From positions 40,226 to 104,225 of the forward strand of contig DATFEP010000064.1 of NCBI GenBank assembly GCA_035250975.1: a DNA stretch of 64,000 bases, read 5' to 3'. This stretch comes from Nitrososphaeraceae archaeon. GTDB taxonomy: Archaea; Thermoproteota; Nitrososphaeria; Nitrososphaerales; Nitrososphaeraceae. The notes beneath the pieces were generated by a model. It was not told the origin of the DNA, made no database searches, and was given only the letters and a program-made list of their open reading frames with translations. Position numbers and translations under genes: made by a program. Positions 33,278 to 59,183 of this stretch are shown here, piece after piece (positions within the stretch are counted from its first letter, which is position 1; every line of letters starts with the position of its first letter).

Positions 33278-33959
33278 TACACTTTTTATATTGTTTTTCA
33301 GAATATTTAATAGCTTTTTTTATTGTTTTTTTAAATTTTAAAAAGTACATGGATCACGGAATGTATCAAATTTATTTATTTAATGAATAAACATGACGAC
33401 GTACAAAAATGTAAATATTAAATAATTTCGTCAATTTCTTACAGGTTTAAATGGAAAATACTGTAAATATTTAATAAACAGCAATATATAAAATTATTGT
33501 TGTCAGAAAATATTAAGACATTGGGTATAAGGTTAACTATAAGACATATGAAAATTTTCCAAGTTATAGACTAGAATCAGGGAATAAAACAAATACAATA
33601 TTAACATAACAAGAAAAAAAGAATAATAAAAATAACCAGGTCCTATATAAACTAATAATGGAACAAAACATTCGCTGGATAGAAAAATTTTGCATATTGC
33701 CTATTAAACACAGAAATAACTAAAAGGGTACATCAGAATATCCCACATTCCAGCATTACTTGTGAATCAAGACATAACAAGCAGATACAGCTGTAACATT
33801 TAATAAAGAATGAAGGTTTATCAGATCGAATTTTACAAAATATCTATTATATTGAAAATATGGTCTATTCTTTTATTTTTGTTTAGGAGTTTGAAAGGAA
33901 AAAGATCTACATTATTAACCTCATTGTCAGATAGAATCTGAACAAGTAGAGAAGAGTAG

Positions 33960-42671: not shown

Positions 42672-43274
42672 ATGCAAAATGAAAATAACAAAAATGAAAA
42701 AATAAACGTTGTAGGAATAAAGGTTTTGGAACAAAATGGAATTAATATAGATGAAATAACGAAATTATTGGTATATAACGCCTCAGTAGAATTTGCGGCT
42801 TATTACTATTTTACTAATTTAAGGATGCATTGTACAGGACAAGACGGAGAAAGTATTAAAGGAGTTATAGAGGATGCAAGATTAGAAGATTTAAGTCATT
42901 TTGAATCATCTTTGTCGAGAATATATGAATTGGGGGCAATACTACCTATTGATGCCCAAGATTTCATAAGGATGTCGGGTTGTGAATTCCTTCAACTCCC
43001 TTCGCCTAACAAAACAGATTTAAAAGAAATACTACAAAAATGTTTAAAAGCGGAGCAAGGAGCTATAGTAAATTGGAATAAGTTATGTAACCTAACTAAT
43101 GGTAAAGATCCTGCAACTTACGACATAGCCAAGGATATTCTACGAGAAGAGATTGAACATGAATCTTGGTTTTTAGAGTTACTGTATGCAAGACCATCAG
43201 GACATATGAGAAGGAAGTTTCCTGGAGAACGTCCTCACACGCATAAACACTCTAGATCATTAAATCTAGTATAA
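42672..43274 (+). CDS. DPS-like (DpsL) ferritin-family protein
   Basis: EFAAYYY, EDARLED..HFE, AEQGAI, EEIEHE..F..L, PSGH motifs. Confidence 0.88.
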   Translation: MQNENNKNEKINVVGIKVLEQNGINIDEITKLLVYNASVEFAAYYYFTNLRMHCTGQDGESIKGVIEDARLEDLSHFESSLSRIYELGAILPIDAQDFIRMSGCEFLQLPSPNKTDLKEILQKCLKAEQGAIVNWNKLCNLTNGKDPATYDIAKDILREEIEHESWFLELLYARPSGHMRRKFPGERPHTHKHSRSLNLV

Positions 43275-44052: not shown

Positions 44053-45189
44053 CTATTTTATGGCAAGTACGTCTGTTTCTGGATAAAATGCAGCCCATTC
44101 AAACCAGAAACCTTGGTCCATAGGAAGTCTTTTTAATTGTCTATCTTGCAATTGTCCATTGATAAATTTACCATCAAAATTTAATTCACTGTCTGTTGTT
44201 CTATCTTTTAAAGTATTATTTGTTTCATTGTAAAATAAATCAACAACAATCTTCTTATTTCCTTCATTATAATCATAAATAACTCGATCAAAAACTCTAA
44301 CCATGAATGGTTCTAATGATACTAAAGCAATTTTTTTATCTTGTCCTATAACATCATTTATTACTTTTTTATTTTCTATATCTTGCAATTTGTAAGCTTT
44401 AAACTGATTTTTATTTCCTAATCCTATTATTATCTCTTTTAATCCTAATCTTTTATCATCATTAGTTACAGGAAACAAAATTAAATCATTAGTATAATAA
44501 TCTCCATATGGATCTGCTCCATATGGTCTAACTGATCCTGTATCTCTAGATAAAACTTTACTTTCAGGATATAATTTCTTCCACTCTTTCCAGTATGCAA
44601 TATCAAACGGAATTTTTTCTAATTTTATACCAGAATAAACTCCAACTATTCCTTCACCTATTGCTTGGCTCCATAATGAATTACTCTTTCTATCATACAT
44701 TACTAAATTACTATTATATAACTTGCCTGAGGTTCCAAATTCTACTGTGTTGCCATCAGATAAAGTACGATTGAATACTTGATTTGTAAAGCATAGGGGA
44801 CAATATGTAACTGCTACTGGTTTATCTCCTACTACATCATTTACAATTTCATGCCATACAAGAATCTGTAATGGATATGCTCTAATATCTCCATTTATAT
44901 TCAAACCAAGGACAAATTCTGAATCTTCTAAAATTTCATCTGCTTCTTGAACTGATCGAAATTTTGGATTATCTATTGATGGTATTCCATCTTGAGGTGG
45001 TCCACCACTAACAATTTTATCTAAGGGAACGGTATGCTTTATTTCTTGACCTAAAGATATTTTAAATATATTTTTTTCTTCGATTAAAAAGAAGATAGTA
45101 CTGTATAAAAACATAGAAAATGCTAATGAAATTATTAAGATTGAATTTAATTTTATTTTCTTCTTCTTATTATCATTCATGACATACAT
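44053..45189 (-). CDS. DUF3179 family protein (CxxC)
   Basis: GGPPQDGIPSID, AYP..IL.WHEIVND, TYCPLC, GTSGKLYNSNLVMYD, FWFEW. Confidence 0.88.
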   Translation of the reverse strand: MYVMNDNKKKKIKLNSILIISLAFSMFLYSTIFFLIEEKNIFKISLGQEIKHTVPLDKIVSGGPPQDGIPSIDNPKFRSVQEADEILEDSEFVLGLNINGDIRAYPLQILVWHEIVNDVVGDKPVAVTYCPLCFTNQVFNRTLSDGNTVEFGTSGKLYNSNLVMYDRKSNSLWSQAIGEGIVGVYSGIKLEKIPFDIAYWKEWKKLYPESKVLSRDTGSVRPYGADPYGDYYTNDLILFPVTNDDKRLGLKEIIIGLGNKNQFKAYKLQDIENKKVINDVIGQDKKIALVSLEPFMVRVFDRVIYDYNEGNKKIVVDLFYNETNNTLKDRTTDSELNFDGKFINGQLQDRQLKRLPMDQGFWFEWAAFYPETDVLAIK

Positions 45190-45203
45190 TTACCTCAAAA
45201 TAA

Positions 45204-45797
45204 TTATCTAGAATTTCCTTGTTGTTTATTTTCTAGTAGTATATTTTTATTTTTTAGAACCTCGAGATCTTTATATAACTTTAAAATAGACACTAGAGTT
45301 ATTAAAGATATTATTATTAGTCCAATATAAGATAAAATACTTGAATAGTTGATCATAAATACTGATACTCCATTTCCGAAAACTAATGGCAAATAAGAAA
45401 GTATAAAAAGCCAACTGCCACAGCATCCTAGTGGTACCAAAGAGAAAAATGAAAAAAAGGAACTTAATGCCGCTCCTAATCCATTTCCAGTACTTGAAGA
45501 ATGTAAGAAATCTTTTTTATTAACCTCACAATTACCACTACTGCTCTTGATCTTTTTTCTATATGATATTACAAATGTTTGAACTCCTGTGCCAACAGCC
45601 ATTCCAATAATTATAAAATAGTTTACTTGAAGTGCAGCTGATATTGATGCCGTAGCAGGCAGGTTAGGAGTTGTAAATACTACTATTAATAGATATGAAA
45701 TAATAGTTATAGAACTGACTATTACTCCCTTTAATATTGATTTTTTTATATTATTATTTAACTGTCTTAATTTATGTATCTGGTTTAAGCGAATCAT
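45204..45797 (-). CDS. 4-TM membrane protein with vicinal Cys pair
   Basis: Hydrophobic segments; VPLGCCGSW; 14 bp upstream of the DUF3179 gene. Confidence 0.7.
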   Translation of the reverse strand: MIRLNQIHKLRQLNNNIKKSILKGVIVSSITIISYLLIVVFTTPNLPATASISAALQVNYFIIIGMAVGTGVQTFVISYRKKIKSSSGNCEVNKKDFLHSSSTGNGLGAALSSFFSFFSLVPLGCCGSWLFILSYLPLVFGNGVSVFMINYSSILSYIGLIIISLITLVSILKLYKDLEVLKNKNILLENKQQGNSR

Positions 45798-45845
45798 AAT
45801 ATATATACAAATGTAAATAAAAAGATCTATTATTTAATGAGATAT

Positions 45846-45878
45846 TTCAATAGTTCAAAAATTACTTTAACAGTTTAA
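45846..45878 (-). promoter_or_regulatory. Tandem operator pair upstream of the TATA box
   Basis: Minus strand TTAAACTGTTAAA-N7-TTGAACTATTGAA-N7-ATTAAATA. Confidence 0.65.
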
Positions 45879-45949
45879 CTTTTAGATTTTGATAAAATAA
45901 AAAAAGTTGGGATTATAGGATACAACACCTTGTTTTGTTATTAATTTAT

Positions 45950-47056
45950 TTATTGTTTGCTCATGTGTTTTAGTACTGTTTGTTGATCAAAGAATGGACA
46001 ATTCACTACATGCTTTCCTTCCATAGCTGGAGCAATAGTCAATAATCCTTTTTCTCTTGCATCATTGAGATCAGATAGTGTCTGTAGTAATTTCGCTTCT
46101 GCAGGATTATTCCATTCTGCAAAATTTATTCTCCACATTGGACTATAGTTTTCATCAGTTGGACCAGCATGTCCAATACCCGGCTGAAATCCCATTGGTC
46201 CAGTACCGTTTATTCCATTTGTAAATTGCGTCAAATCTACGGCAGCAGATGTAGCCGCAAGTTTTTCATCAGAAGGAGAATAAACTACACCCATCATATT
46301 TGCAGGCATTTCTGGAGCAGCATCAGTTACTATGTAGTATATTGTATTACCATCTGGACCCCATCCCCTATGAGCAATGAAAGTCACTATCATATTTTCT
46401 GTATCAATCTTTGTAACTTGGCCTCCACCATATTCCGTTTCGTCATTTATTTCTCCCTGTTTAATTACTAGTTCTCCTCCATCCCATTTTACTGCTGGTT
46501 TGTTAACGATGATGGTTGATTTTTCTATTGTTATTTGGCCATCTTTTTCTGCTGTTATTATATCCTCGACCGATTTCAACTCTTGAGCATCTGCTTCATT
46601 TTTCCACTGAACCGTGTTAATCTGATATAATGGACTATATCCTTCGTCTCCTGGCTTTGCATTCAATACTGGCAATTGGAACCCAAATGATCCATCGCCT
46701 TTAATTCCATTTTTAAAAGCATAAGCTTGACCCAAGCTTTCGGCAGGAGTGTTTGCTACTGCTGATGCTACATTTGCCTTAAATCCAGTAATATTGGTTA
46801 TCAACTCAGCAGTTTTTTTATCCGACGCATCAGTTGCTATTACAAAAATATCATTTCCATTTACATATCCTTTCATAAGAGGAATATCAATTTGTACATT
46901 TGCTGAAGCTAATTTTAATACTGAACCTGGATCAGTTTGAGCGTATGCATGTTTTGTTGTTAACGGACCTGCAATCACTAGCGTTGAACCAAGAATTGCA
47001 AATGTTGTTATGATTGAAAAAATTTTTAGATTCTTTTTTTCTAGTATGTTATTCAT
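45950..47056 (-). CDS. Secreted protein with two internal repeats (YSP-W/Y motif)
   Basis: Signal peptide; repeats IATDAS..F.NG..G.G..GFQ..YSPLY..VN.P and IVTDAA..F.NG..G.GP.GFQ..YSPMW..VNCP. Confidence 0.75.
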   Translation of the reverse strand: MNNILEKKNLKIFSIITTFAILGSTLVIAGPLTTKHAYAQTDPGSVLKLASANVQIDIPLMKGYVNGNDIFVIATDASDKKTAELITNITGFKANVASAVANTPAESLGQAYAFKNGIKGDGSFGFQLPVLNAKPGDEGYSPLYQINTVQWKNEADAQELKSVEDIITAEKDGQITIEKSTIIVNKPAVKWDGGELVIKQGEINDETEYGGGQVTKIDTENMIVTFIAHRGWGPDGNTIYYIVTDAAPEMPANMMGVVYSPSDEKLAATSAAVDLTQFTNGINGTGPMGFQPGIGHAGPTDENYSPMWRINFAEWNNPAEAKLLQTLSDLNDAREKGLLTIAPAMEGKHVVNCPFFDQQTVLKHMSKQ

Positions 47057-47094
47057 TGATTAAAAAAATAAAAATGATCTATAAAAATGGATAC

Positions 47095-47127
47095 TTGAAC
47101 CATTAAATTAAAAGTTGAACATTTGAA
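47095..47127 (-). promoter_or_regulatory. Tandem operator pair upstream of the TATA box
   Basis: Minus strand TTCAAATGTTCAA-N7-TTTAATGGTTCAA-N7-TTTTTATA. Confidence 0.7.
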
Positions 47128-47471
47128 TTTTTCTTTACTGTCTAACGACAGGTCCTAAACAAAATTGAGAATATATAAAAGCAGATCGAATTAGTTAATG
47201 CAATATGTATTTTCGTGGTGAATGTATCGTAAATTGATTCTTATAATCAATATAAAATAGTAAAAGTTGGTTTTAAAATAATCTCTACCCTGATTTTTGA
47301 TAAATTGGTATTAATTTATTCTCCTGTGTGAGAAAAATACTATATTTTTCAATTTATAAAATTATCTATTTCAAAAATTTCCAAAATTGGGAAATTTATC
47401 AAGAAATTATTATTGGAAAAAGAATAAGAATCCAAACATCTGTAATTTCTTAACTATTAACATATCATTTT

Positions 47472-49430
47472 TTATTTTTCTCCATGTTCTGTTCGAGTTT
47501 TTAGTCTCGTTATGTCTCTTTTGAAGAATAGATCTATAAACCAGTCCAACATTACTCTCAATTTTCTTTCAGTAGTTGGAAGATTTCCCCAGTAATATAG
47601 TCGCCAGAATATCCATCCAATAAAACCATGAATTTTGTGTCCAAATACTAAACCTACACCATTTCTTTTTCCTACAAGAGCCATCATACCTTTAGTTTTG
47701 TAGTTAAAAACTAATTCTTCTTTCTTCTTGTTTTTCTTTGAGTATATTTCATTAATTATGTTGTTAGATACTATTTTAGCTGCCCTTAATGCATGCTGAG
47801 CTGTAGGTGGATATGGTTTTCCAGTATTAGGGTCGATTATAAAAGCACAATCTCCTAGTGCAAAAATATTTGTATATCCATTTACTTTTAGGTGTTCGTT
47901 AGTAATTATTTTTCCTGATTTATCATGTTCGCAATTTAAATTGCTTATAATGTTATTCGGTTTAACTCCTCCCGCCCAAATTACTGTATCACTGCATATT
48001 CTCTCTTCATCGTTTAATAATACATAATTCTCATCTATCTCTTTAACTCTTTTATTTAAGATAATTTGAACTCCATTTTTTTCGAGTTTGTTTAGAGTAA
48101 ATTCTGATAAATCATCTGAGACTTCTGGTAAAATTCGTGAACCAGAATTTATCAATATTATTTTAATATATTTGATATCAATGTTGTGATAATACTGTTT
48201 AACAGAATCACGAACAAAATCATTTAATTCTCCAACAGTTTCTATACCAGAAAAGCCGCCTCCCACCACTACAAATGTCATTAATCTTTTTTGTAATTCT
48301 ATATTTTCATATTCCATATCAGCTTGCTCAAGCATATTTATAACATGATCTCGCAATAACAACGCATCACCAATAGTCTTTATGGTGAATGCATTTTTAG
48401 ATGCACTTTCTATGTCAAAAAAATTGGTTTCTCCTCCAAGCGCTAAAACTAGATAATGATATTTTAGAACTTTGATTTTACTGTTTGATAAATTGGAATA
48501 CTTACCTATGTTATATCTAATGCTTACTTCCTTTTCTTCAAGATTTATAGAATCAATATTTGCCTCATAAAATCTAGCTCTTTTACAAAATGACCTAATA
48601 GGTGTAATTATATGTCTTGTCTCTATTGCACTTGCAGCTACTTCTGGGAGCATAGGCGTGAAGAGAAAAAAATTATCTCTACTTACAATTGTTATATCTA
48701 TATCAATTTGATCTTGAAATTCCTTTTGTAACTGTTGTAATATTTTTATTCCAGCAAATCCACCACCCAAAATCACTATCCTTTTTAGTTCTATTGGTTT
48801 GGTGCCATGTATTAGTTCAGCATGTTTTTGATATGAATCAATTCTACCTAAAGATATATCGCACTTTGCACACCTATATCGAGTACCAAATTTTATAGAA
48901 AGGCTAGAAGAAACAAGACCTACAGTAATACCAAAAATGAGGTGGGTAACTAGAGAACCTATCAAAACAGTTGTCAATTGTGATGAAAGTTCTGATTCAA
49001 TCAGTTCTTTTTCATAATTAGTGGATTCCTGGAGCATACTTATTGTTTCAGGAGATAGAACAAATTGATATACTGGTATAAAGAAAACTATGAATACTAC
49101 AGTACCAGCAAAAATTCCATATATTATTCCATTGGATGGCTTACTAATATTTAATATGCCAGTTTTATACAAAAAGATGCCTACCACAACTCCTATTGAA
49201 ATAGCAGTTAACATATGTATCCCTATACCAGCTAATATTGCATCTGATGAATATACTCCAATTACATGTCCAAAAACTATCCATGATAAGTAATAAGGCA
49301 TTCCCATTACTACTTCAAAAATTGTTTTAGGAATAACAAAAACGACTGCACCTGCAATAGCGCCAACTACTACAAAAAATATTTCTCTCTTTAGAGAAAA
49401 ATCTATTTTTACTTTAGTATAATTGCTCAT
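47472..49430 (-). CDS. Type II NADH dehydrogenase-like flavoprotein with N-terminal membrane domain and C2H2 finger
   Basis: ILGGGFAG, FTPMLPEV, VVGGGFSGIE, WAGG, ALGDCA, PPTAQHA; about 4 N-terminal TMs; CAKC-x12-H-x4-H. Confidence 0.85.
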   Translation of the reverse strand: MSNYTKVKIDFSLKREIFFVVVGAIAGAVVFVIPKTIFEVVMGMPYYLSWIVFGHVIGVYSSDAILAGIGIHMLTAISIGVVVGIFLYKTGILNISKPSNGIIYGIFAGTVVFIVFFIPVYQFVLSPETISMLQESTNYEKELIESELSSQLTTVLIGSLVTHLIFGITVGLVSSSLSIKFGTRYRCAKCDISLGRIDSYQKHAELIHGTKPIELKRIVILGGGFAGIKILQQLQKEFQDQIDIDITIVSRDNFFLFTPMLPEVAASAIETRHIITPIRSFCKRARFYEANIDSINLEEKEVSIRYNIGKYSNLSNSKIKVLKYHYLVLALGGETNFFDIESASKNAFTIKTIGDALLLRDHVINMLEQADMEYENIELQKRLMTFVVVGGGFSGIETVGELNDFVRDSVKQYYHNIDIKYIKIILINSGSRILPEVSDDLSEFTLNKLEKNGVQIILNKRVKEIDENYVLLNDEERICSDTVIWAGGVKPNNIISNLNCEHDKSGKIITNEHLKVNGYTNIFALGDCAFIIDPNTGKPYPPTAQHALRAAKIVSNNIINEIYSKKNKKKEELVFNYKTKGMMALVGKRNGVGLVFGHKIHGFIGWIFWRLYYWGNLPTTERKLRVMLDWFIDLFFKRDITRLKTRTEHGEK

Positions 49431-49908
49431 TATAAAATATCAGCCTCCTTACAAATTGTTTATTAATTTTCATGAACTTGTATTTATATTTGGATACAAA
49501 CATTGCGAAAAACCAACCAATTCAATGAGCCGAACTTTAATTTGATACCCGTATCATATTTTTTTATATTAGTGTGATTAATTATCAATAATTTTATCCT
49601 GAATAAGTAGAATATATGTATCTGCTTTAATTATTAAAGAAAAAATTAAAAGATTAAAGAAAAATTACTGTATGAATATGCTGGGGATAATTTCATCCAT
49701 TAAAGTCTATTTTCTACAAAATTTTATGTTTGATGATGAAATGACTAATTACTCCAATAAGAATAAAACAAATAAATATCAACGACAGGAAAACAAATCC
49801 ATATTCAATTACAAATAATTTTGGTATAGTGAATCTTTTCATATTCATTTTTTTTATTGTTATAAGATTCTATTATTTTAAAGATCCATAGAATATTATT
49901 AGATTACC

Positions 49909-49941
49909 TAAAACGGTTCAATTTATTCATTAACGGTTAAT
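49909..49941. promoter_or_regulatory. Tandem operator-like pair (a weaker second pair lies at 49973-50005)
   Basis: TAAAACGGTTCAA-N7-ATTAACGGTTAAT. Confidence 0.45.
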
Positions 49942-50076
49942 CAAAGATAATCAAAAATTGAGATGATAGCAACTTAACGAGTTCTCTTTGTTTTTAAATG
50001 TTAAGAGAATATGAAATAGTCACATCTAGGTATTAATTCTCATCTTATTTTCATAACAAATGAATTAATTAAAGAA

Positions 50077-50745
50077 TTATTGTTTATCCAAAGTGCTGTT
50101 TATTAAAAGTTTTCCCAGTGTGGTTATCGTAACTGAGATTTTATTGCGATCTCCTTTTTCTACATCCGCTAGACCTAATTCAGCAAGTCCCTTTGCTTCT
50201 CTTGAGCCTTGTATATGATAACTTAAAAGCGGTTTTCCAAATCCAGAAATTTTTTCTAACTGGTCAAAACTTTCAACATTACCGCCTGCACTATCTAAAG
50301 CTACAAGAATTTTTTTCTTTGCATCTGATATAATCTCATTATAGCTAAGTTTCAAAACAGGCATCATAAGCGGATTTGTATGAGTGTAATCCATTCCAAA
50401 TGCTTTTACACCGTGTATAAAAGCTGTAGAAAGCGCAGCACAACCTAGTAATTTATCTCCACAGCTGACATTCATCAATATATCATCAAATTCTTTACCA
50501 TGTATTTGCAATACCTCGTTTATTTGATCCATCGTGTCCCTTATTACATTCTCTTTGGCAACTAAGGTAATCGTTATGGGAAGACCTAGTATACTTTTAA
50601 TCCTTCTTGAAAAGTCTTCTGCTTTACTTTTATCCTCATGAAAGCACAGTAATACAAGCTTGTGAATTGGAAATGTTTTGATCCCAAATGCTATTGCATC
50701 TTGGCCATCTGTACCAAATGTCGCGATCTGCAGAGTTTTCATCAT
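50077..50745 (-). CDS. CARF-like + winged-HTH transcriptional regulator (Csa3/DUF6293-like); start probably MMKTLQ at 50745
   Basis: Rossmann-like N-terminus (IATFG, NVSCGDK), wHTH C-terminus (KKKIL..L..LSYHI..L.ELGL....T.LG). Confidence 0.8.
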   Translation of the reverse strand: MMKTLQIATFGTDGQDAIAFGIKTFPIHKLVLLCFHEDKSKAEDFSRRIKSILGLPITITLVAKENVIRDTMDQINEVLQIHGKEFDDILMNVSCGDKLLGCAALSTAFIHGVKAFGMDYTHTNPLMMPVLKLSYNEIISDAKKKILVALDSAGGNVESFDQLEKISGFGKPLLSYHIQGSREAKGLAELGLADVEKGDRNKISVTITTLGKLLINSTLDKQ

Positions 50746-50785
50746 TATAATTTTTAGTAGATTTATCATGCTTATAAGACATATC

Positions 50786-50817
50786 TTTAATGATTCTATT
50801 TTGTCTTAAACGTTAAA
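50786..50817 (-). promoter_or_regulatory. Autoregulatory operator pair of the CARF-wHTH gene
   Basis: Minus strand TTTAACGTTTAAG-N6-TAGAATCATTAAA-N7-CTTATAAG. Confidence 0.55.
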
Positions 50818-50924
50818 ATATTGATATAACTTTTTGTTTTTATTTAATCGTAGAATATTTTATGAAATATCTAATCATGCCATAAACCTTTAAAATAATG
50901 GTGTTTATGATCTGTTTTTGATTT

Positions 50925-51101
50925 CTAGAAATTCTGACTCTTAACGTTCTCACTACTATCATTTTTTCTTTTCTTTAGAACCTCTTTTAGTATTTTTTTT
51001 ACTTTTATTCTTTGTCTAAGGTTCTGTATTGCTTTCATCATTATAGGACTAAGAATAATCCCTAAAATCATACCTAAAGTCATATCAATTATTGATACCA
51101 C
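50925..51101 (-). CDS. Small single-TM protein (58 aa, below ORF cutoff)
   Basis: GTG-VSIIDMTLGMILGIILSPIMMKAIQNLRQRIKVKKILKEVLKKRKNDSSENVKSQNF; TM followed by a basic helix. Confidence 0.5.
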   Translation of the reverse strand: MVSIIDMTLGMILGIILSPIMMKAIQNLRQRIKVKKILKEVLKKRKNDSSENVKSQNF

Positions 51102-51249
51102 GTTAAAATATAGAAACTACCTGATATACATAAGTAATTCTCTTTTATTGTAAATCACATCAGCTATCTCAAGTTTACTTTCATTCCTAAAGAGTCTCAA
51201 AAATTGACAGATAATTCTTACTGAAATATTAAAAATCAAATAATAAAAA

Positions 51250-51981
51250 GGCTCTGTTAACTTAAGATAACTTCACCTCCATTAAACTCAAAATTAAAAT
51301 CATTACATGTTGTTCTAACACTATTATACATAGAAACAAAGAATTGTATCCAATTATATACATGAAATAGATTACATTCATTTTCTTTTTGAATACAAGG
51401 ATAATAGTCATCAAATCCTTCAGTTCTATCCTTAAAATACTGATTGACTCTTTCCATCAAATGTTTCTCAAATGGTGAATGTAGATGATGTTTTAATCCA
51501 ATTACATTGCATGCTTGTGGATACCATGTACCACCATCAGTATAAACTGGATGTCTTCCATACATTTGAACCAGGGATCTAATGAATTTTTCAGCAACAA
51601 ACATGTTTCTCTCTTCTGAAATGTATATTCCAAGCACGAGACTGTGTATTGGTTCTATACAAAACCATAACCAAAAGTGTTGATTACCAATCTGAATAAT
51701 GGTTTCATCTATTATAAAGGCAGATACTCTTCTGCGTCGGTATGTCTCATATGAGGCAAATCTCTGAATCCAATTCCATACAGAAACATGACTTCTTTTT
51801 TCGTCCTTGAAAATTATTAATGCCATAGAAGCATTACGTAGACTCAAACCAAGAAAATAAAGATAAAGAGAGTACATTACAATAATAGTAGATGTTTTAT
51901 TTCTTTCAAATTTAATTTTCATATAATAGATAAGATGTTCTTATCTATAGCTTTTACTGCTTAACTTAACTTAACACAGCC
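51250..51981 (-). mobile_element. IS6-family insertion sequence (732 bp)
   Basis: Terminal inverted repeats GGCTCTGTTAACTTAAG / GGCTGTGTTAAGTTAAG (15 of 17 match) flank a DDE transposase; no target duplication seen. Confidence 0.88.
51257..51922 (-). CDS. IS6 DDE transposase
   Basis: GLSLR..SHVSVWNW, IIDET, YTDGG..Y, ER.NQYFKDRT. Confidence 0.9.
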   Translation of the reverse strand: MKIKFERNKTSTIIVMYSLYLYFLGLSLRNASMALIIFKDEKRSHVSVWNWIQRFASYETYRRRRVSAFIIDETIIQIGNQHFWLWFCIEPIHSLVLGIYISEERNMFVAEKFIRSLVQMYGRHPVYTDGGTWYPQACNVIGLKHHLHSPFEKHLMERVNQYFKDRTEGFDDYYPCIQKENECNLFHVYNWIQFFVSMYNSVRTTCNDFNFEFNGGEVILS

Positions 51982-52067
51982 TCTTTGTCAATGAACTAAA
52001 TTAATACGTAAAAAGAAATTTTCCTTGCATCCGAACCATTTGAATAACAACTCGTTTATGGAATAAA

Positions 52068-52100
52068 TTTAACAATCAAAGAAGATCTTTAATGATTTTA
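52068..52100 (+). promoter_or_regulatory. Tandem operator pair upstream of the TATA box
   Basis: TTTAACAATCAAA-N7-TTTAATGATTTTA-N7-CTTTTATC. Confidence 0.6.
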
Positions 52101-52135
52101 GGAAATTCTTTTATCTATTTTTTTAAAAGGACTAA

Positions 52136-53521
52136 TTGATGAAAAATTTTAGAAATACAAATGCTGAAAAGAAAAGGAAAAGAAAAGAAAACACAATAGT
52201 TGTCCCTACGCTAAGTCTAGCGATATTTTTCATACTGGGAACTTTATTGCCATCTATAAACATTGTACCTAATGCGTTTGGAGTAGATGAATCAGAAACA
52301 GAGTCGATAGAAATCAAATTTAACGAACCAACTATTACGGAAATAGATGATGTTGCTGTCGAAATAAATCCAGTCCAAGATAAAGAAACAGGATTGACTT
52401 CGCTCAACATGAAAGTTACGGACAAAGATACTAAATTACCATTAACTCATGTAGACTGGTTAATCTCAATAAAGGACCAGAATAACAAATTATATGAAAG
52501 TTCTACCCAACATTCACATGTAGGACTATATAATTTTGAATATGCATTAGACAAAGGTACATATAACATTTTAACTCAAGTAGCGTCTCTTGGTCCAAAA
52601 ATGATGGGAATGGAAGTACCTGGAATGGCTCAGACAAGAATATTAGAATCAGGTGATCCAATGGAAGGCTGGAAAACAGATCCAAACAAATTCTTTGGAT
52701 TTAAAAACGTCAATTTCATACTAGCTGTTGATAATGGTGTTGCAACAAATACTAGTGGTCAATTAGCACCAGAAACAGACACCAATTCACAAGACCCAAA
52801 CAAAAATTCCCAGATAACAGTTAGTTCTGAAACAGGAAAGAAAGTAAATGTAAAAGTAGTCACAGTTCCTGAAAAAATAGTTGCAGGTCAACCAGCAACT
52901 GTAGCATTAGATATAATGACTGAAAATGGTACGAGTATAACTCATCCTGACGGCTTGCTTACTGTATCCAAAGATGGATTCACTTTGTTAAAGTCCGCCG
53001 AAAAAGGAAATCCAATGATGCCAGTCAATGGTGCATTCCATGGACATACTGGACAATTAGCATTTAATGTAATATTTCCACAGGCTGGAGTTTACACTTT
53101 GGATGCTAAATTGAATTCACTTCCAGTTTCAAACGTAATGTTTGGCAATGTAGATACAAAGTTTGACCTAGGAGTCGTAGATGCTGCATCGTCATCAACA
53201 GAGCAAGTAGCTGGAACATCAAGCACAAATCCAAACCAAGTATCAATAATAGGTCAAGAACAACCATTTTACTCTCCAACGAATTTTGAAGTTAAAAAAG
53301 GTACTACATTAACTTTCAAAAATGACGATGCAATAGTACACGTAATAGCTAGTACAAATGACAAAATTGGAGCCACATCTCCGAATGCTGACGGAAAGTT
53401 TGATACAGGTATTCTAATGATGGGTCAAGAGAGTACGGGCATTACACTTGATGAACCTGGGACAATTAACTATTTCTGCACAGTACACCCGTTCATGCAG
53501 GGATCAATAACTGTCACATAA
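52136..53521 (+). CDS. Secreted copper protein: two His/Met-rich Ig-like domains plus C-terminal cupredoxin
   Basis: THVDW..QHSHVG, KMMGMEVPGM, THPDG..FHGHTG; HVI...YFCTVHPFM. Confidence 0.8.
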   Translation: MMKNFRNTNAEKKRKRKENTIVVPTLSLAIFFILGTLLPSINIVPNAFGVDESETESIEIKFNEPTITEIDDVAVEINPVQDKETGLTSLNMKVTDKDTKLPLTHVDWLISIKDQNNKLYESSTQHSHVGLYNFEYALDKGTYNILTQVASLGPKMMGMEVPGMAQTRILESGDPMEGWKTDPNKFFGFKNVNFILAVDNGVATNTSGQLAPETDTNSQDPNKNSQITVSSETGKKVNVKVVTVPEKIVAGQPATVALDIMTENGTSITHPDGLLTVSKDGFTLLKSAEKGNPMMPVNGAFHGHTGQLAFNVIFPQAGVYTLDAKLNSLPVSNVMFGNVDTKFDLGVVDAASSSTEQVAGTSSTNPNQVSIIGQEQPFYSPTNFEVKKGTTLTFKNDDAIVHVIASTNDKIGATSPNADGKFDTGILMMGQESTGITLDEPGTINYFCTVHPFMQGSITVT

Positions 53522-53522
53522 C

Positions 53523-53545
53523 AACTTCCCTTCTTTTTTTTATTT
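53523..53545 (+). terminator. Oligo-T terminator
   Basis: AACTTCCCTTCTTTTTTTTATT immediately after the stop; a similar tract follows the 59183 stop. Confidence 0.45.
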
Positions 53546-53560
53546 TAGAGATTAATTAAA

Positions 53561-54954
53561 ATGGTCAATAACATAATACAAACAATCAATCCTCCTATTA
53601 ATAAAGTTCTTGCCGAATATGAAGTTGAAGATGAACAAGATGTATCAGATATTATTGATAAATCTAAAAAAACATTTGATGGATGGAAAGATGACGTTCA
53701 TACTAGACGAGATGTATTATATACTGTTTCAAAGGAACTAAAAAAACACAGAGAAGAACTTGCTAAAATTGCCACAAACGAAATGAGTAAGCCAATAAAA
53801 GAGGCAAGGGCAGAAGTAGAAAAATGTGCTACTGCAAGGGAATTTTATGCATATAATGGAGAAATATACCTACATGAAGAATCTATCAATACAGATGCTA
53901 ATAAAAGCATAATAAAATTTGAACCTCTTGGTGTAATCGGAAGCATAATGCCTTGGAATTTTCCTTACTGGCAAGCATTGAGATTTGCTGCACCATGTTT
54001 AATGGCTGGAAATACAATTGTTCTCAAACCAGCTAGCAATACTATACAATGTGGTATCGAAATAGAAAAACTATTTCAGAAAGTAGGATTAGATAATGTT
54101 TTTCAGACACTGATAGGAAATTATCATGTTGCAGAATATCTTATAGATTCTAATGTTAACGGTATAACATTTACTGGAAGTGTAGATGTTGGTGCCAAAG
54201 TTGCAAAGAGAGCGACCGCTCAATTAAAAAAATGTGTTTTGGAGCTAGGTGGAAGCGACCCTTTTATAGTATGCAAAGACGCAGATGTGGAAAAAGCCTC
54301 AACAGGAGCTGTAAAGGGGCGATTTATAAATTGCGGCCAAAGTTGTATTGCATCAAAACGATTTTTTATTGTAAGAGAAATAGCTGATGAATTTATCGAA
54401 AAATTTGTCCAAAAAACAGAGAAATTAAGAATAGGAACCCAATGTCTGGAGAGACCGATATTGGTCCTCGGGTAAACTCAAAAAGTCTTGAGAATATAGA
54501 CGAACTTGTTAAAGATGCCTTAAATAATGGTGCAGAACTTGTTATTGGAGGTGAAAAAATAGAAAGTAAAGGATTTTTTTATAAACCGACAATATTAAAG
54601 AATATTTCTGATGGTTCTAGGATCGCAAAGGAAGAAACATTTGGACCTGTTGCCCCAATAACTATTGTAAATGATGAAATAGAAGCTATAGGACTGGCAA
54701 ATGACTCGCAATTCGGATTAGGCGCGAGCATATGGACTTATGACCTAGAAAAAGCGGAGAAACTAGCAAATTGGATGCAATCAGGCATAGTAACAGTGAA
54801 CAATGTCGTTATTTCCGATCCGAGAATCCCTTTCGGAGGAATCAAAAAGAGTGGTTTTGGAAGGGAACTTTCAAGATACGGTATGTTAGAATTTATAAAT
54901 GTTAAATCCATTAGGTTTTATGATGAGCTTGTAGTAAATCATTATGTGGAGTGA
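53561..54954 (+). pseudogene. NAD-dependent (succinate-semi)aldehyde dehydrogenase, split by a 1-nt deletion at ~54437
   Basis: PWNFP, FTGS, ELGG, GQSC in ORF1; EETFGP, PFGG.K.SG.GRE in ORF2; junction ATAGGAACCCAATG restores IGxPMSG with one added base. Confidence 0.8.
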
Positions 54955-54959
54955 TATAG

Positions 54960-56127
54960 ATGGCAAATCAAGGTTTGGAAAATGTCTTACTCCTACAAGG
55001 AGGAGGTTCATTGGGTGCTTTTGGTTGTGGAGTTTACAAAGCACTTGCAAAAAATAAAATTAATATAGATATTCTTGCTGGAACTTCAATCGGTGGAGTA
55101 AATGCAGCAATAATTGCTGGAAGCAAGAGTGACAGACCAGAAAAAACATTGGAAGAATTTTGGTTAGAACTTGGAGAAAATTCAATAAATTTAGACACTT
55201 ACTTTTCCCCATTGTCATCACTTATGGATTACGATTCCTTATCTAGTTACCTAAATTCAAAAGAAAACTGTTCAAATTATAGATCATTGTTATCGTTTTA
55301 TAGCTCGTCCTTTTATGGAAACAATGCAATGTTTCTACCTCATGGAGATCGGATTTGACACCTAATTCATCAGATTCTATTGATCCTATACATTGGACAT
55401 ATGTGTACGACAATTCACCTTTAGAAAGGACTCTAGAAAAATACGTTGACTATGAGAAGCTGAATCCTACAGGAAAACCAAATGGGCGTCTAATAATCAC
55501 TGCTGTAAATGTATTAACAGCTGAACCATTAACATTTGATAGTTCTAAACAAAAAATCACATCCAAACATATACTCGCTACGTCTGGATATCCTTTCTAT
55601 TTTTTACCCTGGACCGAAGTAGAAAAAGATGTGTATGCCTGGGATGGCGGTCTTTTAAGTAACACACCTTTGAGAGAAGTAATAGATGCATCTCCTGTTA
55701 ATAATAAACAAGTATTCCTAGTTGAGAATTACCCGAAAAATATAGAAAAGCTGCCCGAAAATATACCAGATGTTTTACACAGGGCACGGGATATAGTATT
55801 TAGCGATAAAACTATTCATAACATAAAGATGTCAAAAGTGATAACAAGATACCTTGAATTTATAGATGAACTCTATAATATAATAGACAAAAATATAGAC
55901 AAAGAAAAACTAGATAAAGACAAAATGAGACAAATAGACTTAAAGTACAATAAGTTTTGTTGTGAACACGGGGCTGAGATTAAAAAAATATATTATATAA
56001 CTAGAAATGAAGATTTCCTCATATCTATGAAAATGCTGATTTTTCAATAGAAACTATAAAAGATTCTATTAAAGAAGGTGAAGTAAAAACAAATGAAGTG
56101 ATCCATAACATGAAGAAATCACAATAG
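54960..56127 (+). pseudogene. Patatin-like phospholipase, two 1-nt frameshifts (~55340, ~56015)
   Basis: LQGGGSLG, GTSIG, DGG motifs; adding one base at each junction gives FLPxWRSD and DFPHIYENADFS...KKSQ-stop at 56127. Confidence 0.8.
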
Positions 56128-56324
56128 ACAGATTTTTTTGCTATATTATTCAAATTGTAAAAACCTAATAGATTATTAAAAATAGAGTTGTTCAAACTTA
56201 ACATTCATGAACTAAATCATTCTCATATAAATACTGCATAATAAGGTCTAAATTTAAAAGATTAGTGTATTTTATAACTTTGTGTTCTTTAAATTTTTAT
56301 TTTTGAATGTGATTATTAATAAAT

Positions 56325-56444
56325 ATGAAATGTGCAGATTGTAATTGTTATCCAGAAGAATGCATTAAAAGCAAATCACCTACGGAGTGTCCAAATTGCA
56401 GTTTAGAAATCTGTTGTTGTTGGAGTACAATCAAAGAAATTTGA
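56325..56444 (+). CDS. Metallothionein-like Cys-rich peptide (39 aa, 9 Cys)
   Basis: MKCADCNCYPEECIKSKSPTECPNCSLEICCCWSTIKEI; AT-rich TATA-like tract upstream, T-rich tract downstream. Confidence 0.65.
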   Translation: MKCADCNCYPEECIKSKSPTECPNCSLEICCCWSTIKEI

Positions 56445-56541
56445 AGAAATTTTTCTTTTTCTCTTTGTACTTCATAAATAAATATTTTTTCTAAAATAAA
56501 AACGATTTACTTGCAAATTAATAGATCACCAAAATATTAAA

Positions 56542-56574
56542 TTTAAACATTCAAATAAAACTTTAATGGTTAAA
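56542..56574 (+). promoter_or_regulatory. Tandem operator pair upstream of the TATA box
   Basis: TTTAAACATTCAA-N7-TTTAATGGTTAAA-N7-TTTAAATA. Confidence 0.7.
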
Positions 56575-56611
56575 AATGAGGTTTAAATAGCATCTTTATT
56601 CTTCCAGTTTT

Positions 56612-57346
56612 ATGAATACGCTTCGAAAAAAGAAGGATATAAAGAAAAGCAATTATTTTTCCAATTCAAATTTAAAAATTTTTCTTTTATTTTTATTTGG
56701 AATTGGTATTAGTACGATTTTTTTCCAATTTAATTACCCTATTTTTGTATCTGCTCAGGAACTTAATAACAACGAACTTTCTCGGGAAAATCTTTTAAAA
56801 AACATATCTCCAGTATTAGGAAACCCTGATGCACCTATAACTATATTGGATTTTAGTGATTTTCAATGTCCAAATTGTGGTAGATATGTAAAGAATACAG
56901 AACCACTAATAAATGAAACATATATACAGACTGGTAAAGTAAGTCTAGTATACAAGTACTTCCCGGTTGTCGGTTTTGATTCAATCAATGCCGCTCTTGG
57001 AGGTCAATGTGCGCAGGAACAAGGTAAATTCTGGGAGTTTCATGAATTGTTGTTTGCAAATCAGAAATCAATTGATTCTGGTTGGGTAAGTAAGGATAAT
57101 TTAAAGAATTTTGCAGCACAAATTTCAGGCTTAGATATACAGAAATTCGCAGAGTGTTTAGATGATGAACTCTATATCGATCACATTAACTTGGATTTGG
57201 AAATGGCTAAAAAATTCCAATTTAGGGGAACTCCCTCTTTTATAATTGTAAAAAGTGATGGTACAGATATCGATGTTCTAACAGGCGCTCATCCGTTTCC
57301 TTCATTTGTAGCTATAATAGAGGATAAATTAAAGGATAAACAATAA
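56612..57346 (+). CDS. DsbA/BdbD-like thiol-disulfide oxidoreductase
   Basis: GNPDAPITI..FSDFQCPNC, QGKFWEFH, GTPSF; N-terminal TM. Confidence 0.9.
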   Translation: MNTLRKKKDIKKSNYFSNSNLKIFLLFLFGIGISTIFFQFNYPIFVSAQELNNNELSRENLLKNISPVLGNPDAPITILDFSDFQCPNCGRYVKNTEPLINETYIQTGKVSLVYKYFPVVGFDSINAALGGQCAQEQGKFWEFHELLFANQKSIDSGWVSKDNLKNFAAQISGLDIQKFAECLDDELYIDHINLDLEMAKKFQFRGTPSFIIVKSDGTDIDVLTGAHPFPSFVAIIEDKLKDKQ

Positions 57347-57363
57347 TATGCATTATTACAGGA

Positions 57364-57879
57364 TTGAATATGAAAATGAATACTAATATCTTTTTTCTCT
57401 CTTCTTTCAGAATCGTTTTCTGTAATCCATTCTATATTATCATATCTATATTGGCCACAACTTTTTTCTGGATTATACTAAATGTTACTGGAGAATTACT
57501 CTTTTTTTCTCCTGTTTGGACTTTCTATCTTCCTGAAGATGCAATATTCAGTTTTATTCTTACAAATGTTATAGCAGTGCTTGTTGGAATAGTTGTAAGT
57601 ATGAATATTTACATAATAAGAAATTCCAAATTAAAACTAAGTAGATCTTTATTCTCTGGCACATCAATAGGATTGATATCCAGTGCTTGTGCTAGTTGTT
57701 CATCAATAGGGTTTGCTTTGGTTTCCACCCTTGGCGGAGTTGGAATTTTAATTTCAAACTTTTTCTCTATTTATGAAATTCCAATACGAATAATTTCTAT
57801 TTTCATTTTGATATATGCATTATATTCATTACATAATAAAATAACCAAAAATTGTCTGCTAGACTTCAAAGTGAAATAA
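57364..57879 (+). CDS. 4-TM membrane protein with CxxC
   Basis: Hydrophobic; SSACASC plus a C-terminal Cys; co-oriented 17 bp after the DsbA-like gene. Confidence 0.75.
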   Translation: MNMKMNTNIFFLSSFRIVFCNPFYIIISILATTFFWIILNVTGELLFFSPVWTFYLPEDAIFSFILTNVIAVLVGIVVSMNIYIIRNSKLKLSRSLFSGTSIGLISSACASCSSIGFALVSTLGGVGILISNFFSIYEIPIRIISIFILIYALYSLHNKITKNCLLDFKVK

Positions 57880-58805: not shown

Positions 58806-59183
58806 ATGACAAACATATTATTATTTGTAACGGTCGCGGCCTTATTTACTACAATTTTGGGATCCAATCTTGGAATTCATTATGCATCTGCACAAGAAGC
58901 AGTATCCATTGCTCCAGGATCTTCTAACCCAAGCGCAAGTCAATTTTATGTTCCACCTGAAATCACCGTATCTTCAGGCACTACTGTAACATGGACAAAT
59001 GATGATGCTACTATTCATACAGTAACAGAAGGAACCCCTGGTGGCGCAGGTGCAACACCCTCATTTGATTCCAGTATAATTTCTCCAGGTGCTACATGGG
59101 AACATACATTTGATACAGCAGGAGAATTTGACTACTACTGTACTTTACATCCATTCATGACGGGTAAAGTAATAGTAAAGTAA
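58806..59183 (+). CDS. Plastocyanin-like blue copper protein
   Basis: Signal peptide; WTNDD..HTVT..FDSS..YYCTLHPFMTG. Confidence 0.92.
   Translation: MTNILLFVTVAALFTTILGSNLGIHYASAQEAVSIAPGSSNPSASQFYVPPEITVSSGTTVTWTNDDATIHTVTEGTPGGAGATPSFDSSIISPGATWEHTFDTAGEFDYYCTLHPFMTGKVIVK

Follow-up and report, generated by a model that had tools for sequence, protein, structure and literature searches.

CARF domains are known as receivers of CRISPR-made cyclic oligoadenylates, and several proteins that couple a CARF domain to a winged helix have been described in archaea. Csa3b of Sulfolobus islandicus, the best studied of those with a tandem-site layout, represses the type I-A cas promoter, where two tandem imperfect palindromes, RI and RII, sit immediately upstream of the BRE/TATA basal promoter (PMC5389559). 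Csa3a has a single palindrome, CAPPa, which also lies just upstream of BRE/TATA but goes with activation, and its ligand is cA4 made by type III CRISPR (PMC8699464). HFX_2341 of Haloferax mediterranei is a Csa3-like regulator with no genomic link to CRISPR, is present in CRISPR-less species, and acts mainly as a repressor (PMC11434293). MM_0565 of Methanosarcina mazei is a dimeric CARF and winged-helix DNA-binding protein with global transcriptional effects (PMC7465815). In the family Nitrososphaeraceae, promoter motifs of Cu-limitation genes have been reported for Nitrososphaera viennensis (PMC7785015).

To determine if a regulator of this type acts outside CRISPR in a soil ammonia-oxidizing archaeon of the Nitrososphaeraceae, we examined a 64,000-nt stretch of its genome (the window; contig DATFEP010000064.1 of GCA_035250975.1). 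A first-pass annotation had proposed that five promoters in the window share a 13-bp pseudo-palindrome (TTNAA-N3-TTNAA), 7 nt (6 in one case), a second copy, exactly 7 nt and a TATA box, and had inferred that a Csa3-like CARF regulator was repurposed to control an extracytoplasmic copper/thiol-disulfide system. The features, including a sixth site that was missed by that annotation, are as follows.

44053..45797 (-), operon of a 197-aa membrane protein with a GCCG motif (45204..45797) and DUF3179 with a CPLC motif (44053..45189)
45846..45878 (-), operator pair of the CC-membrane/DUF3179 operon; TATA-like box at 45831-45838, ATG at 45797
45950..47056 (-), secreted DUF7482 protein (368 aa)
47095..47127 (-), operator pair of the DUF7482 promoter; TATA-like box at 47080-47087, ATG at 47056
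47472..49430 (-), 652-aa protein with an N-terminal membrane domain fused to an NDH-2-type flavoprotein
49626..49658 (-), sixth operator pair, about 196 nt upstream of the NDH-2-like gene; TATA-like box at 49611-49618
50077..50745 (-), CARF and winged-helix regulator (predicted fold), 222 aa when started at Met-9 of the 230-aa ORF 50077..50769
50786..50817 (-), degenerate operator pair with a 6-nt gap at the regulator's own promoter; TATA-like box at 50771-50778
52068..52100 (+), weaker operator pair of the cupredoxin promoter; TATA-like box at 52108-52115, ATG at 52139
52139..53521 (+), 460-aa secreted protein with a C-terminal plastocyanin-like cupredoxin domain
56542..56574 (+), operator pair of the DsbA-like/CxxC-membrane operon; TATA-like box at 56582-56589, ATG at 56612
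56612..57879 (+), DsbA-like thioredoxin-fold protein (CPNC) and a 171-aa membrane protein (CASC)

The observation made in the first-pass annotation was confirmed. Read in the direction of the downstream gene, each of its five sites shows a 13-bp half-site, 7 nt (6 at 50786), a second half-site, 7 nt and an 8-nt TATA-like box. Sites 45846, 47095 and 56542 match TTNAA-N3-TTNAA perfectly in both halves, while 50786 and 52068 each have 2 mismatches in 16 defined positions. The distance from the proximal half-site to the ATG is 38, 37, 38 and 40 nt for 47095, 56542, 52068 and 50786, the last taking Met-9 as the start, and 48 nt for 45846. To test whether the spaced pair is commoner than expected by chance, we searched all 2,488,707 bases of the genome with the exact pattern at gaps of 5-9 nt. 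This gave 5 hits, all with a gap of 7: 45846, 47095, 49626 and 56542 of the window, plus a low-complexity hit at position 9426 of contig C47. Four of the five lie within 10.7 kb of this window, and twenty 60-bp block shuffles gave a mean of 0.05 for gap 7. When 1 or 2 mismatches were allowed, the gap-7 counts equalled background (7 against 5.5, and 56 against 61.7), and the two degenerate sites therefore need other support. Their geometry and their orthologous promoters support them. A matrix built from 23 half-sites of relatives only ranked 47095, 45846 and 56542 first, second and third genome-wide, with scores of 25.9, 25.3 and 23.7; in shuffles, 0.3 windows reached 20 and none reached 22 at gap 7. 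Site 49626 scored 19.7, within the null range. Site 50786 scored 15.1, with 6 windows genome-wide scoring as high at gap 6, and 52068 scored 14.2, with 17 windows scoring as high at gap 7.

The first-pass annotation had also claimed that the 47.1-kb and 56.5-kb promoters align without gaps over 52 nt, and this holds. They share 31 of 52 positions, against 16.2 +/- 3.5 for random pairs of 1100 upstream 52-mers in the same register, and 3.5e-5 of 200,000 pairs reach 31. Such similarity, and the nearly identical promoters of close relatives, might be explained by common descent of duplicated promoters or by a local repeat without regulatory function. We consider this very unlikely, since across genera with GC from 0.33 to 0.52 the palindromes and their 7-nt registers persist while the spacers and flanks change, the layout precedes non-homologous genes, and paralogs outside the module lack it. 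Between this genome and its relatives, the DUF7482 half-sites keep 22 of 26 positions while the two spacers keep 5 of 14, as read by eye. Across genomes, 39 distinct oriented sites all show the 13-7-13-7-TATA layout, and the site-to-ATG distance is 37 nt in 13 of them; the information content of the half-site columns is inflated here, because the sites were picked by matrix score.

We next examined the regulator. Orthologs begin at residue 10 of the 230-aa ORF and are 219 aa, and the TATA-like box lies 25 nt upstream of the Met-9 ATG. The protein scored below the curated cut-offs of both named families: 25.3 bits against 30 for Pfam HFX_2341_N (PF19810), which is nevertheless the best Pfam hit and whose precomputed label is carried by nearly all close homologs listed, and 18.6 bits against 60.2 for TIGR01884 (Csa3). 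A profile of 89 homologs hit the CARF proteins 8bao (2.1e-8), Csm6' (1e-5) and Can2 (4.9e-4) over residues 1-114, and residues 130-209 hit the HTH regulators YetL (MarR), PH1932 and HlyU/ArsR at E 0.004-0.35. The AF2 model has a pLDDT of 93.7 and shows the secondary structure of a winged helix at residues 135-219. Foldseek hit CARF proteins with probability 1.00; the top hits were the Crn1-type ring nucleases Sis0811/SSO1393 (PDB 7pq2, 3qyf; TM 0.60-0.65 over the whole chain, sequence identity 10-13%), with whole-chain alignments to Csa3 6wxq/2wte at E 5e-8 to 7e-8. Of the two pocket motifs of Csa3, only partial matches were seen by eye: the loop after strand 1 reads T-F-G-T-D-G and the loop after strand 4 reads V-S-C-G-D-K, and the family consensus keeps G-D after strand 4. 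A homodimer model gave an ipSAE of 0.78 against a best control of 0.00, a mark reached by 20 of 30 proteins solved as pairs and 1 of 23 solved as single chains; the three runs agreed in at least 98% of contacts and the partner pLDDT was at least 87, although the pass may reflect likeness to solved CARF dimers. These results suggest a dimeric CARF and winged-helix protein of the Csa3/Crn1 fold.

Searches of the genome, which is 94.6% complete, found no Cas1, Cas10 (Cmr2 or Csm1), SMODS or GGDEF. The first-pass annotation's statement that no CRISPR is seen is true of the window, but the genome does hold an orphan CRISPR-like array of 7 repeats on another contig (C51), among housekeeping genes.

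To examine if the operators travel with the regulator, we compared related genomes (G and L numbers below denote relatives' genomes and loci). In same-genus relatives the operators flank the regulator gene. Orthologous regulator promoters in relatives, other genera included, carry stronger copies in the same register, which supports site 50786. In the 8 regulator-positive genomes of the genus, 7 of 8 exact hits lie beside the regulator or its cluster genes. The 16 regulator-negative genus genomes gave 3 hits, the reversed-pattern control gave 3 in 41 genomes, and the 16 genomes of other families gave 0. In other genera, 17 of 18 loci with a regulator of 63-72% identity (GC 0.33-0.52) carry tandem gap-7 sites scoring at least 12, and 15 of those 18 have DUF7482, CC-membrane, DUF3179 or the NDH-2-like gene adjacent; one locus of 67% identity (L089) shows no such site. 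Across several genera of the family the regulator sits beside DUF7482, a CC-motif membrane protein and DUF3179, and the same layout precedes each unit. In contrast, 0 of 5 loci of the 59-62% paralog clade have either. Relatives are kin, and counts across them overstate independence.

The putative target genes gave a graded picture. DUF7482 (Pfam, 5.9e-112) is adjacent to the regulator in relatives, and 9 of 9 orthologs of at least 69% identity carry a site 36-43 nt from their start; four of these were not in the training set and three are unlinked to the regulator. The 64% ortholog in G015 has no site, a truncated hit in G017 (L133) gave none, and among homologs of 60% identity or less 14 of 14 have a best score of 9.4 or lower. 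The promoter of the CC-membrane/DUF3179 operon (Pfam DUF3179, 2.9e-104) is conserved in G001, G010, G012 and G021 and in other genera, and DUF3179 was found in 6 of 8 regulator-positive and 0 of 16 regulator-negative genus genomes. Site 49626 is orthologous to a perfect site in G017 that has the same downstream box and is followed by a remnant of the NDH-2-like N-terminus; homologs of the NDH-2-like protein (Pyr_redox_2 5.7e-46, NDH2_C 1.2e-6) lie directly next to the regulator in two other genomes, L089 and L092. The operator of the DsbA-like operon (Thioredoxin_4 1.2e-25, DSBA 1.5e-9) is partly conserved at orthologs in G010 (contig C217, 13.8) and G017 (contig C57, 18.6, gap 6), but was not found within 700 nt at the orthologs in the regulator-positive genomes G001 and G021. 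For the cupredoxin (Copper-bind, 9.5e-11), homologs at E <= 1e-20 were found in only 2 of 24 genus genomes, both regulator-positive; the 80%-identical ortholog in G021 has a site scoring 16.0 with the same 7-nt gap and TATA, while the 49% homolog in G017 has none. The conserved core comprises DUF7482, CC-membrane and DUF3179, the regulator and probably the NDH-2-like flavoprotein, whereas the DsbA and cupredoxin promoters are lineage-specific additions.

Since the tandem palindromes are AT-rich and simple, a different transcription factor encoded elsewhere might bind them, with the CARF protein as one more target. This appears unlikely: the regulator is the only DNA-binding candidate in the conserved four-gene cluster, sites accompany it across genera and are missing from its paralog clade, site-bearing DUF7482 orthologs and DUF3179 occur only in regulator-positive genomes of the genus, and a 13-bp palindrome fits a winged-helix dimer.

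Collectively, these results suggest, with a probability of about 0.8, that the predicted CARF and winged-helix homodimer controls this small regulon, including its own gene. A protein type known from CRISPR immunity seems to run an ordinary metabolic switch here. In this view it recognises a 13-bp palindrome whose consensus across the family is TTTAAC-N-GTTAAA, relaxed in this AT-rich genome to TTNAA-N3-TTNAA. The two palindromes lie 20 bp apart centre to centre, about two helical turns, so two dimers would sit on the same face of the DNA, and the proximal palindrome abuts the place where BRE lies. If the transcripts are leaderless, which the modal 22 nt between TATA and ATG suggests, the operators are centred near -44 and -64; these positions are inferred from that spacing. 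The interpretation in the first-pass annotation is partly supported. The sites with their statistics, layout and conservation, the gene linkage and the predicted fold rest on the analysis itself, whereas binding of the sites by this protein, the sign of regulation, the ligand and a physiological role in extracytoplasmic thiol/metal redox are inferred. The targets are rich in extracytoplasmic Cys-motif proteins, but the copper link rests on one cupredoxin with the weakest operator.

The dimer pair may help TBP/TFB onto promoters with poor BRE, and activation is slightly more likely than not. Archaeal factors bound upstream of BRE/TATA usually activate, the Csa3a palindrome, also just upstream of BRE, goes with activation, and the 7 nt between operator and TATA show no conserved BRE-like sequence, which fits factor-dependent promoters. 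It remains possible, though less likely, that the protein is a repressor or a ligand-dependent dual regulator, with two dimers next to BRE hindering TFB/TBP or needing a co-factor, as Csa3b does at the type I-A cas promoter, and the ligand relieving repression. The example of Csa3b argues against reading the upstream position as activation, HFX_2341 is mainly a repressor, the TATA boxes look strong by inspection, and the proximal operator ends only 7 nt from TATA. In either case the protein would respond to a small ligand bound in the CARF pocket at the dimer interface, which is not a CRISPR-made cyclic oligoadenylate because the genome has no detectable Cas10.

A broader reading, which we hold only tentatively, is that a whole clade of these regulators in soil ammonia oxidizers has left CRISPR signalling altogether, senses a cellular small molecule other than a Cas10-made cyclic oligoadenylate, and, through a tandem-palindrome operator next to BRE/TATA, switches on a dedicated envelope module of a CC-motif membrane protein, CxxC DUF3179, DUF7482, an NDH-2-like flavoprotein and, in some lineages, DsbA and cupredoxin, which would move reducing power or a thiophilic metal such as copper across the membrane. 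This would be the first CARF transcription factor with a defined operator and direct regulon outside immunity, and the first regulator-operator pair defined for Nitrososphaeraceae. The locus offers a clean, testable system, with a sharply defined 33-bp operator site and about five promoters of fixed geometry, for the open question of what the many CARF proteins outside CRISPR loci sense. It could name a new CARF ligand and assign a first function to DUF7482, DUF3179 and the CC-motif membrane protein. The module is conserved across genera of the most abundant soil ammonia oxidizers, in which almost no transcription factor has a known site, and its putative targets are copper- and thiol-related envelope proteins that matter for a copper-dependent metabolism.

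Compared with the described systems, the N. viennensis motifs likewise lie 35-70 nt upstream of start codons, are sometimes doubled, and precede genes for DsbD-family, plastocyanin-like and unknown exported proteins, but the published consensus sequences (an 18-mer for up-regulated and a 27-mer for down-regulated genes), to which no regulator was assigned, are not the palindrome found here. Sis0811/SSO1393 are the best structural matches but are enzymes that cleave cA4. MM_0565 shares the domain architecture but is encoded at a type I-B CRISPR locus and binds CRISPR leaders. HFX_2341 provides a precedent for a CARF regulator without CRISPR linkage that affects housekeeping genes; it is 308 aa, its targets are transport and metabolism genes, it also affects cas genes, and the abstract and Results of that study define no operator and no direct regulon. 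Csa3a shares the fold, a palindrome just upstream of BRE/TATA, near-exact co-occurrence of regulator and motif, and a CARF pocket at the dimer interface, but its site is a single 18-bp TCCC-N8-GGGA. Csa3b is the closest in layout, since its tandem palindromes are also conserved together with the regulator across a family. However, its site is an 18-bp TTTTC-N8-GAAAA, it lies next to CRISPR-cas, and it controls cas genes and needs Cascade for full repression, whereas the predicted targets here are envelope redox genes.

The window (C15:40226-104225; C numbers denote contigs of this genome unless a genome handle precedes them) is part of a 2.49-Mb genome of 91 contigs. Its GC content is about 31%, it encodes archaeal AmoA, and its closest protein relatives are labelled Nitrososphaeraceae. 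To determine if the five tandem sites proposed in the first-pass annotation are present, each was read in the direction of its downstream gene. The observation held: each of the five, at 45846, 47095, 50786, 52068 and 56542, shows a 13-bp half-site, 7 nt (6 nt at 50786), a second half-site, 7 nt and an 8-nt TATA-like box. The downstream genes are as follows.

45797 to 44053, minus strand: a 197-aa membrane protein with a GCCG motif (the CC-membrane protein), followed by DUF3179, which has a CPLC motif.
47056 to 45950, minus strand: a secreted DUF7482 protein.
50745 to 50077, minus strand: the regulator.
52139-53521: a 460-aa protein ending in a plastocyanin-like domain.
56612-57879: a DsbA-like protein (CPNC) with a 171-aa membrane protein (CASC).

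To examine if the sites exceed chance, the whole genome was searched for the pattern TTNAA-N3-TTNAA, gap, TTNAA-N3-TTNAA with gaps of 5 to 9 nt. There were five hits, all with a gap of exactly 7, and four of them lie between window positions 45846 and 56542. Twenty shuffles in 60-bp blocks, which keep local composition, gave a mean of 0.05 for gap 7, so the exact sites are more than chance. The fourth window hit, at 49626, was not among the sites listed in the first-pass annotation, and the fifth, C47:9426, is of low complexity and precedes a 67-aa secreted ORF. With one or two mismatches the counts equalled the shuffles (7 against 5.5, and 56 against 61.7, at gap 7). The relaxed pattern was therefore not used to enlarge the regulon, and the pattern alone says nothing for sites 50786 and 52068, which each have two mismatches.

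We next built a half-site matrix from 23 distinct half-sites taken only from the loci of relatives and scanned this genome with it. The three best tandem windows in 2.49 Mb were 47095 (25.9), 45846 (25.3) and 56542 (23.7), whereas in shuffles 0.3 windows reached 20 and none reached 22 at gap 7. Site 49626 scored 19.7, which is inside the null range. Site 50786 scored 15.1, with 6 windows genome-wide scoring as high at gap 6, and site 52068 scored 14.2, with 17 windows scoring as high at gap 7. Both weak sites nevertheless have the same geometry as the strong ones. Among the 47 positions (94 oriented windows) scoring at least 13, an ATG opening an ORF of at least 60 aa lies 37-40 nt after the proximal half-site at 47095 (38), 56542 (37), 52068 (38) and 50786 (40), and at only two other places in the genome. 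Weak extra candidates outside the window were C47:9426, C14:29765 (score 15.4, with an ATG 40 nt downstream that opens a 133-aa response-regulator receiver protein), C70:872 and C89:86782. For 50786 the geometry requires the regulator to start at Met-9. Its longest ORF starts at 50769, but the TATA-like box lies at 50771-50778, so the real start is most likely the ATG at 50745, which would leave out 50746-50769, as in its orthologs, whose matches begin at query residue 10 and whose open frames are 219 aa. The ungapped alignment claimed for the 47.1-kb and 56.5-kb promoters also held, at 31 of 52 positions against 16.2 +/- 3.5 for random promoter pairs.

To determine the nature of the regulator, sequence models, profiles and predicted structures were compared. 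Sequence models gave only sub-threshold hits, with HFX_2341_N at 25.3 bits against 30 and Csa3 TIGR01884 at 18.6 against 60.2, and a search of the PDB with the single sequence gave nothing meaningful. In contrast, a profile of 89 homologs hit CARF proteins in the PDB (8bao at 2.1e-8, Csm6' at 1e-5 and Can2 at 4.9e-4), and its C-terminal third hit MarR/ArsR-type HTH regulators. The AlphaFold model is confident (pLDDT 93.7, pTM 0.81), and its best structural matches are the CARF + wHTH ring nucleases Sis0811/SSO1393 (TM 0.60-0.65) and Csa3 with and without cA4 (E 5e-8 to 7e-8). A two-copy model scored ipSAE 0.78 against 0.00 for the best control, a mark reached by 20 of 30 proteins solved as pairs and by 1 of 23 solved as single chains. 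The three runs agree in at least 98% of contacts and partner pLDDT is at least 87, although the score may simply reflect likeness to solved CARF dimers. The CARF-wHTH architecture suggested in the first-pass annotation is therefore right, while membership of Csa3 proper is not shown. An IS transposase (window 51257-51922, minus strand; DDE_Tnp_IS240, 1.7e-8) sits between the promoters of the regulator and the cupredoxin, and a 94-aa fragment of a 69%-identical homolog lies next to the regulator in the relative G012 (L036:11822-12106; G numbers denote genomes and L numbers extracted loci).

Comparison within the genus ties sites, regulator and targets together. The regulator was found in 8 of 24 other genomes of the genus, where it lies in the order regulator, DUF7482, then CC-membrane/DUF3179, with a tandem site before each unit, although not every locus holds all of these (G012, for example, lacks the adjacent DUF7482). 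The 8 regulator-positive genomes gave 8 exact-pattern hits, seven of them beside the regulator or its cluster genes. The 16 regulator-negative genomes of the genus gave 3 hits, which is close to the reversed-pattern control (3 genomes of 41 with a hit), and the 16 genomes of other families gave none. DUF3179 was found in 6 of the 8 regulator-positive genomes and in 0 of the 16 negative ones. Since the relatives are kin, these counts and those below overstate independence. In a genome of another family of the order, a 36%-identical homolog of the regulator lies about 2.6 kb from a DUF3179 gene (G038:C1:223846-227992; L012, L143), and the link between the two may therefore be older than Nitrososphaeraceae. 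No tandem site of the pattern, with up to 2 mismatches, was seen in the 3.6-kb locus around that homolog (L012), which does not reach the DUF3179 gene.

For DUF7482, 25 homologs were examined. All 9 orthologs of at least 69% identity with a usable upstream region have a site scoring 18.0-25.9, placed 36-43 nt from the start. Four of these were outside the training set, and three sit on contigs without the regulator. A truncated hit (L133) and the 64% ortholog in the genome G015 have no site, and all 14 homologs of 60% identity or less have a best score of 9.4 or lower anywhere in 260 nt upstream.

Across the family, the regulator was found in 34 of 81 genomes and 11 of 18 genera, a tally that includes one genome flagged unpublished, G111, whose locus was not used. 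In these genomes the matrix was applied to 23 loci rather than to whole genomes. Of the 18 loci with a regulator of 63-72% identity, 17 carry gap-7 tandem sites scoring at least 12, with GC ranging from 0.33 to 0.52, and 15 of the 18 have DUF7482, CC-membrane, DUF3179 or the NDH-2-like gene adjacent. One locus, L089, has none of the sites, and none of the 5 loci of a 59-62% paralog clade has sites or these neighbours. When 39 distinct oriented sites were pooled, every one showed 13-7-13-7 followed by a TATA-like 8-mer, and the distance to the ATG was 37 nt in 13 of them. The position of the TATA box was not used to pick the sites, so it is independent support for the layout, whereas the high information content in the half-site columns is partly an effect of selection. 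In the other genera the half-site is close to a perfect palindrome, TTTAAC-N-GTTAAA.

The cupredoxin and DsbA promoters are lineage-specific additions. The cupredoxin has homologs in only 2 of 24 genus genomes, both regulator-positive: the 80% ortholog in G021 has a better site (16.0) with the same gap and box, and the 49% homolog in G017 has none. The DsbA promoter site is partly kept at G010:C217 (13.8) and G017:C57 (18.6 at gap 6), but was not found within 700 nt at the G001 and G021 orthologs, nor in the regulator-negative G022 and G016. In G022 (C326, L049) the DsbA ortholog is 73% identical and, read by eye, its promoter resembles the one here but has a degenerate proximal half-site. Site 49626 aligns with a perfect site in G017, together with the box that follows it, and both lie about 200 nt upstream of the start of the NDH-2-like gene, homologs of which sit directly beside the regulator in two other genomes. 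This gene (window 47472-49430, minus strand) encodes an unusual fusion of an N-terminal multi-helix membrane domain, a CxxC...HxxxxH stretch that looks like a zinc finger, and an NDH-2-type flavoprotein, and G017 keeps only an N-terminal remnant inside an 83-aa ORF (L037:11132-11383). Other genes lie among or around these units.

42672-43274, plus strand: a ferritin-like protein, with no operator seen before it.
53561-54954, plus strand: an aldehyde dehydrogenase split into two overlapping ORFs (Pfam Aldedh positions 9-301 and 305-461), probably by a frameshift; a relative, G017, has an intact 466-aa homolog (L037:16020-17420).
54960-56050, plus strand: a patatin-like phospholipase split into two ORFs (Pfam Patatin positions 1-100 and 85-190).
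58806-59183, plus strand: a second, small plastocyanin-like cupredoxin (125 aa), with no operator seen before it.

The first-pass interpretation, a CARF regulator repurposed to control an extracytoplasmic copper/thiol-disulfide system, is partly supported. The sites and their statistics, the layout and its conservation, the gene linkage and the predicted fold rest on the analysis itself, whereas binding of the sites by this protein, the sign of regulation, any ligand and the physiological role are inferred. A 13-bp palindrome fits a winged-helix dimer, and two palindromes 20 bp apart centre to centre would place two dimers on one face of the helix, with the proximal site ending 7 nt before TATA, where BRE lies. 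The 22 nt between box and ATG suggest leaderless mRNAs, which would centre the operators near -44 and -64, although this is inferred from spacing alone. We lean toward activation, with a probability of about 0.55, since the 7-nt BRE stretch is not conserved and archaeal factors bound upstream of BRE usually activate. The closest characterised case, Csa3b, argues the other way, as it represses (PMC5389559). The palindrome of Csa3a at a similar place goes with activation (PMC8699464).

To examine possible sources of a ligand, the genome, which is 94.6% complete, was searched for signalling and CRISPR proteins, and no Cas1, Cas10 (Cmr2, Csm1), SMODS or GGDEF was found. Its only CRISPR-like array is an orphan on contig C51 at about 33,950-34,400 (L149:5954-6398), with 7 copies of a roughly 30-nt repeat at a 66-67 nt period and one spacer occurring twice, flanked by housekeeping genes (RtcB, S11, ThiL, GlmM, Bax1, CorA). 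By eye, the Csa3 pocket motifs described in PMC8699464 are only partly present in the regulator.

The role of the module is likewise inferred. The targets share an extracytoplasmic or membrane location and Cys motifs, and DsbA-like and cupredoxin domains are present. DUF3179 is listed as a UxxC/T selenoprotein family, which points to a redox-active CxxC (PMC9312934). The two Cys-motif membrane proteins are not detectably homologous to each other (BLASTP E 0.085) and match no Pfam or NCBIfam family. In the ESM Atlas, relatives of the CC-membrane protein are unnamed clusters, the nearest named cluster carrying HMA at 0.75, which is a lead only, and DUF7482 gave no usable hit. The shared location, Cys motifs and domains fit the thiol-disulfide/copper idea of the first-pass annotation, but copper itself rests only on the cupredoxin and on the weak lead to HMA-fused relatives of the CC-membrane protein.

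In the library searched, no paper was found on DUF7482, and searches on DUF3179, on CARF in ammonia-oxidizing archaea and on Csa3 in Nitrososphaera found no description of this regulon. The published N. viennensis copper motifs (PMC7785015) were compared by eye with the palindrome and judged different. CARF + wHTH regulators, tandem palindromes next to BRE/TATA, and a Csa3-like regulator without CRISPR linkage (HFX_2341, PMC11434293) are all known. What is new here is a clade in soil ammonia oxidizers, a sharply defined putative operator, a conserved, non-immune regulon inferred to be direct, and a genome with no detectable source of cyclic oligoadenylate.
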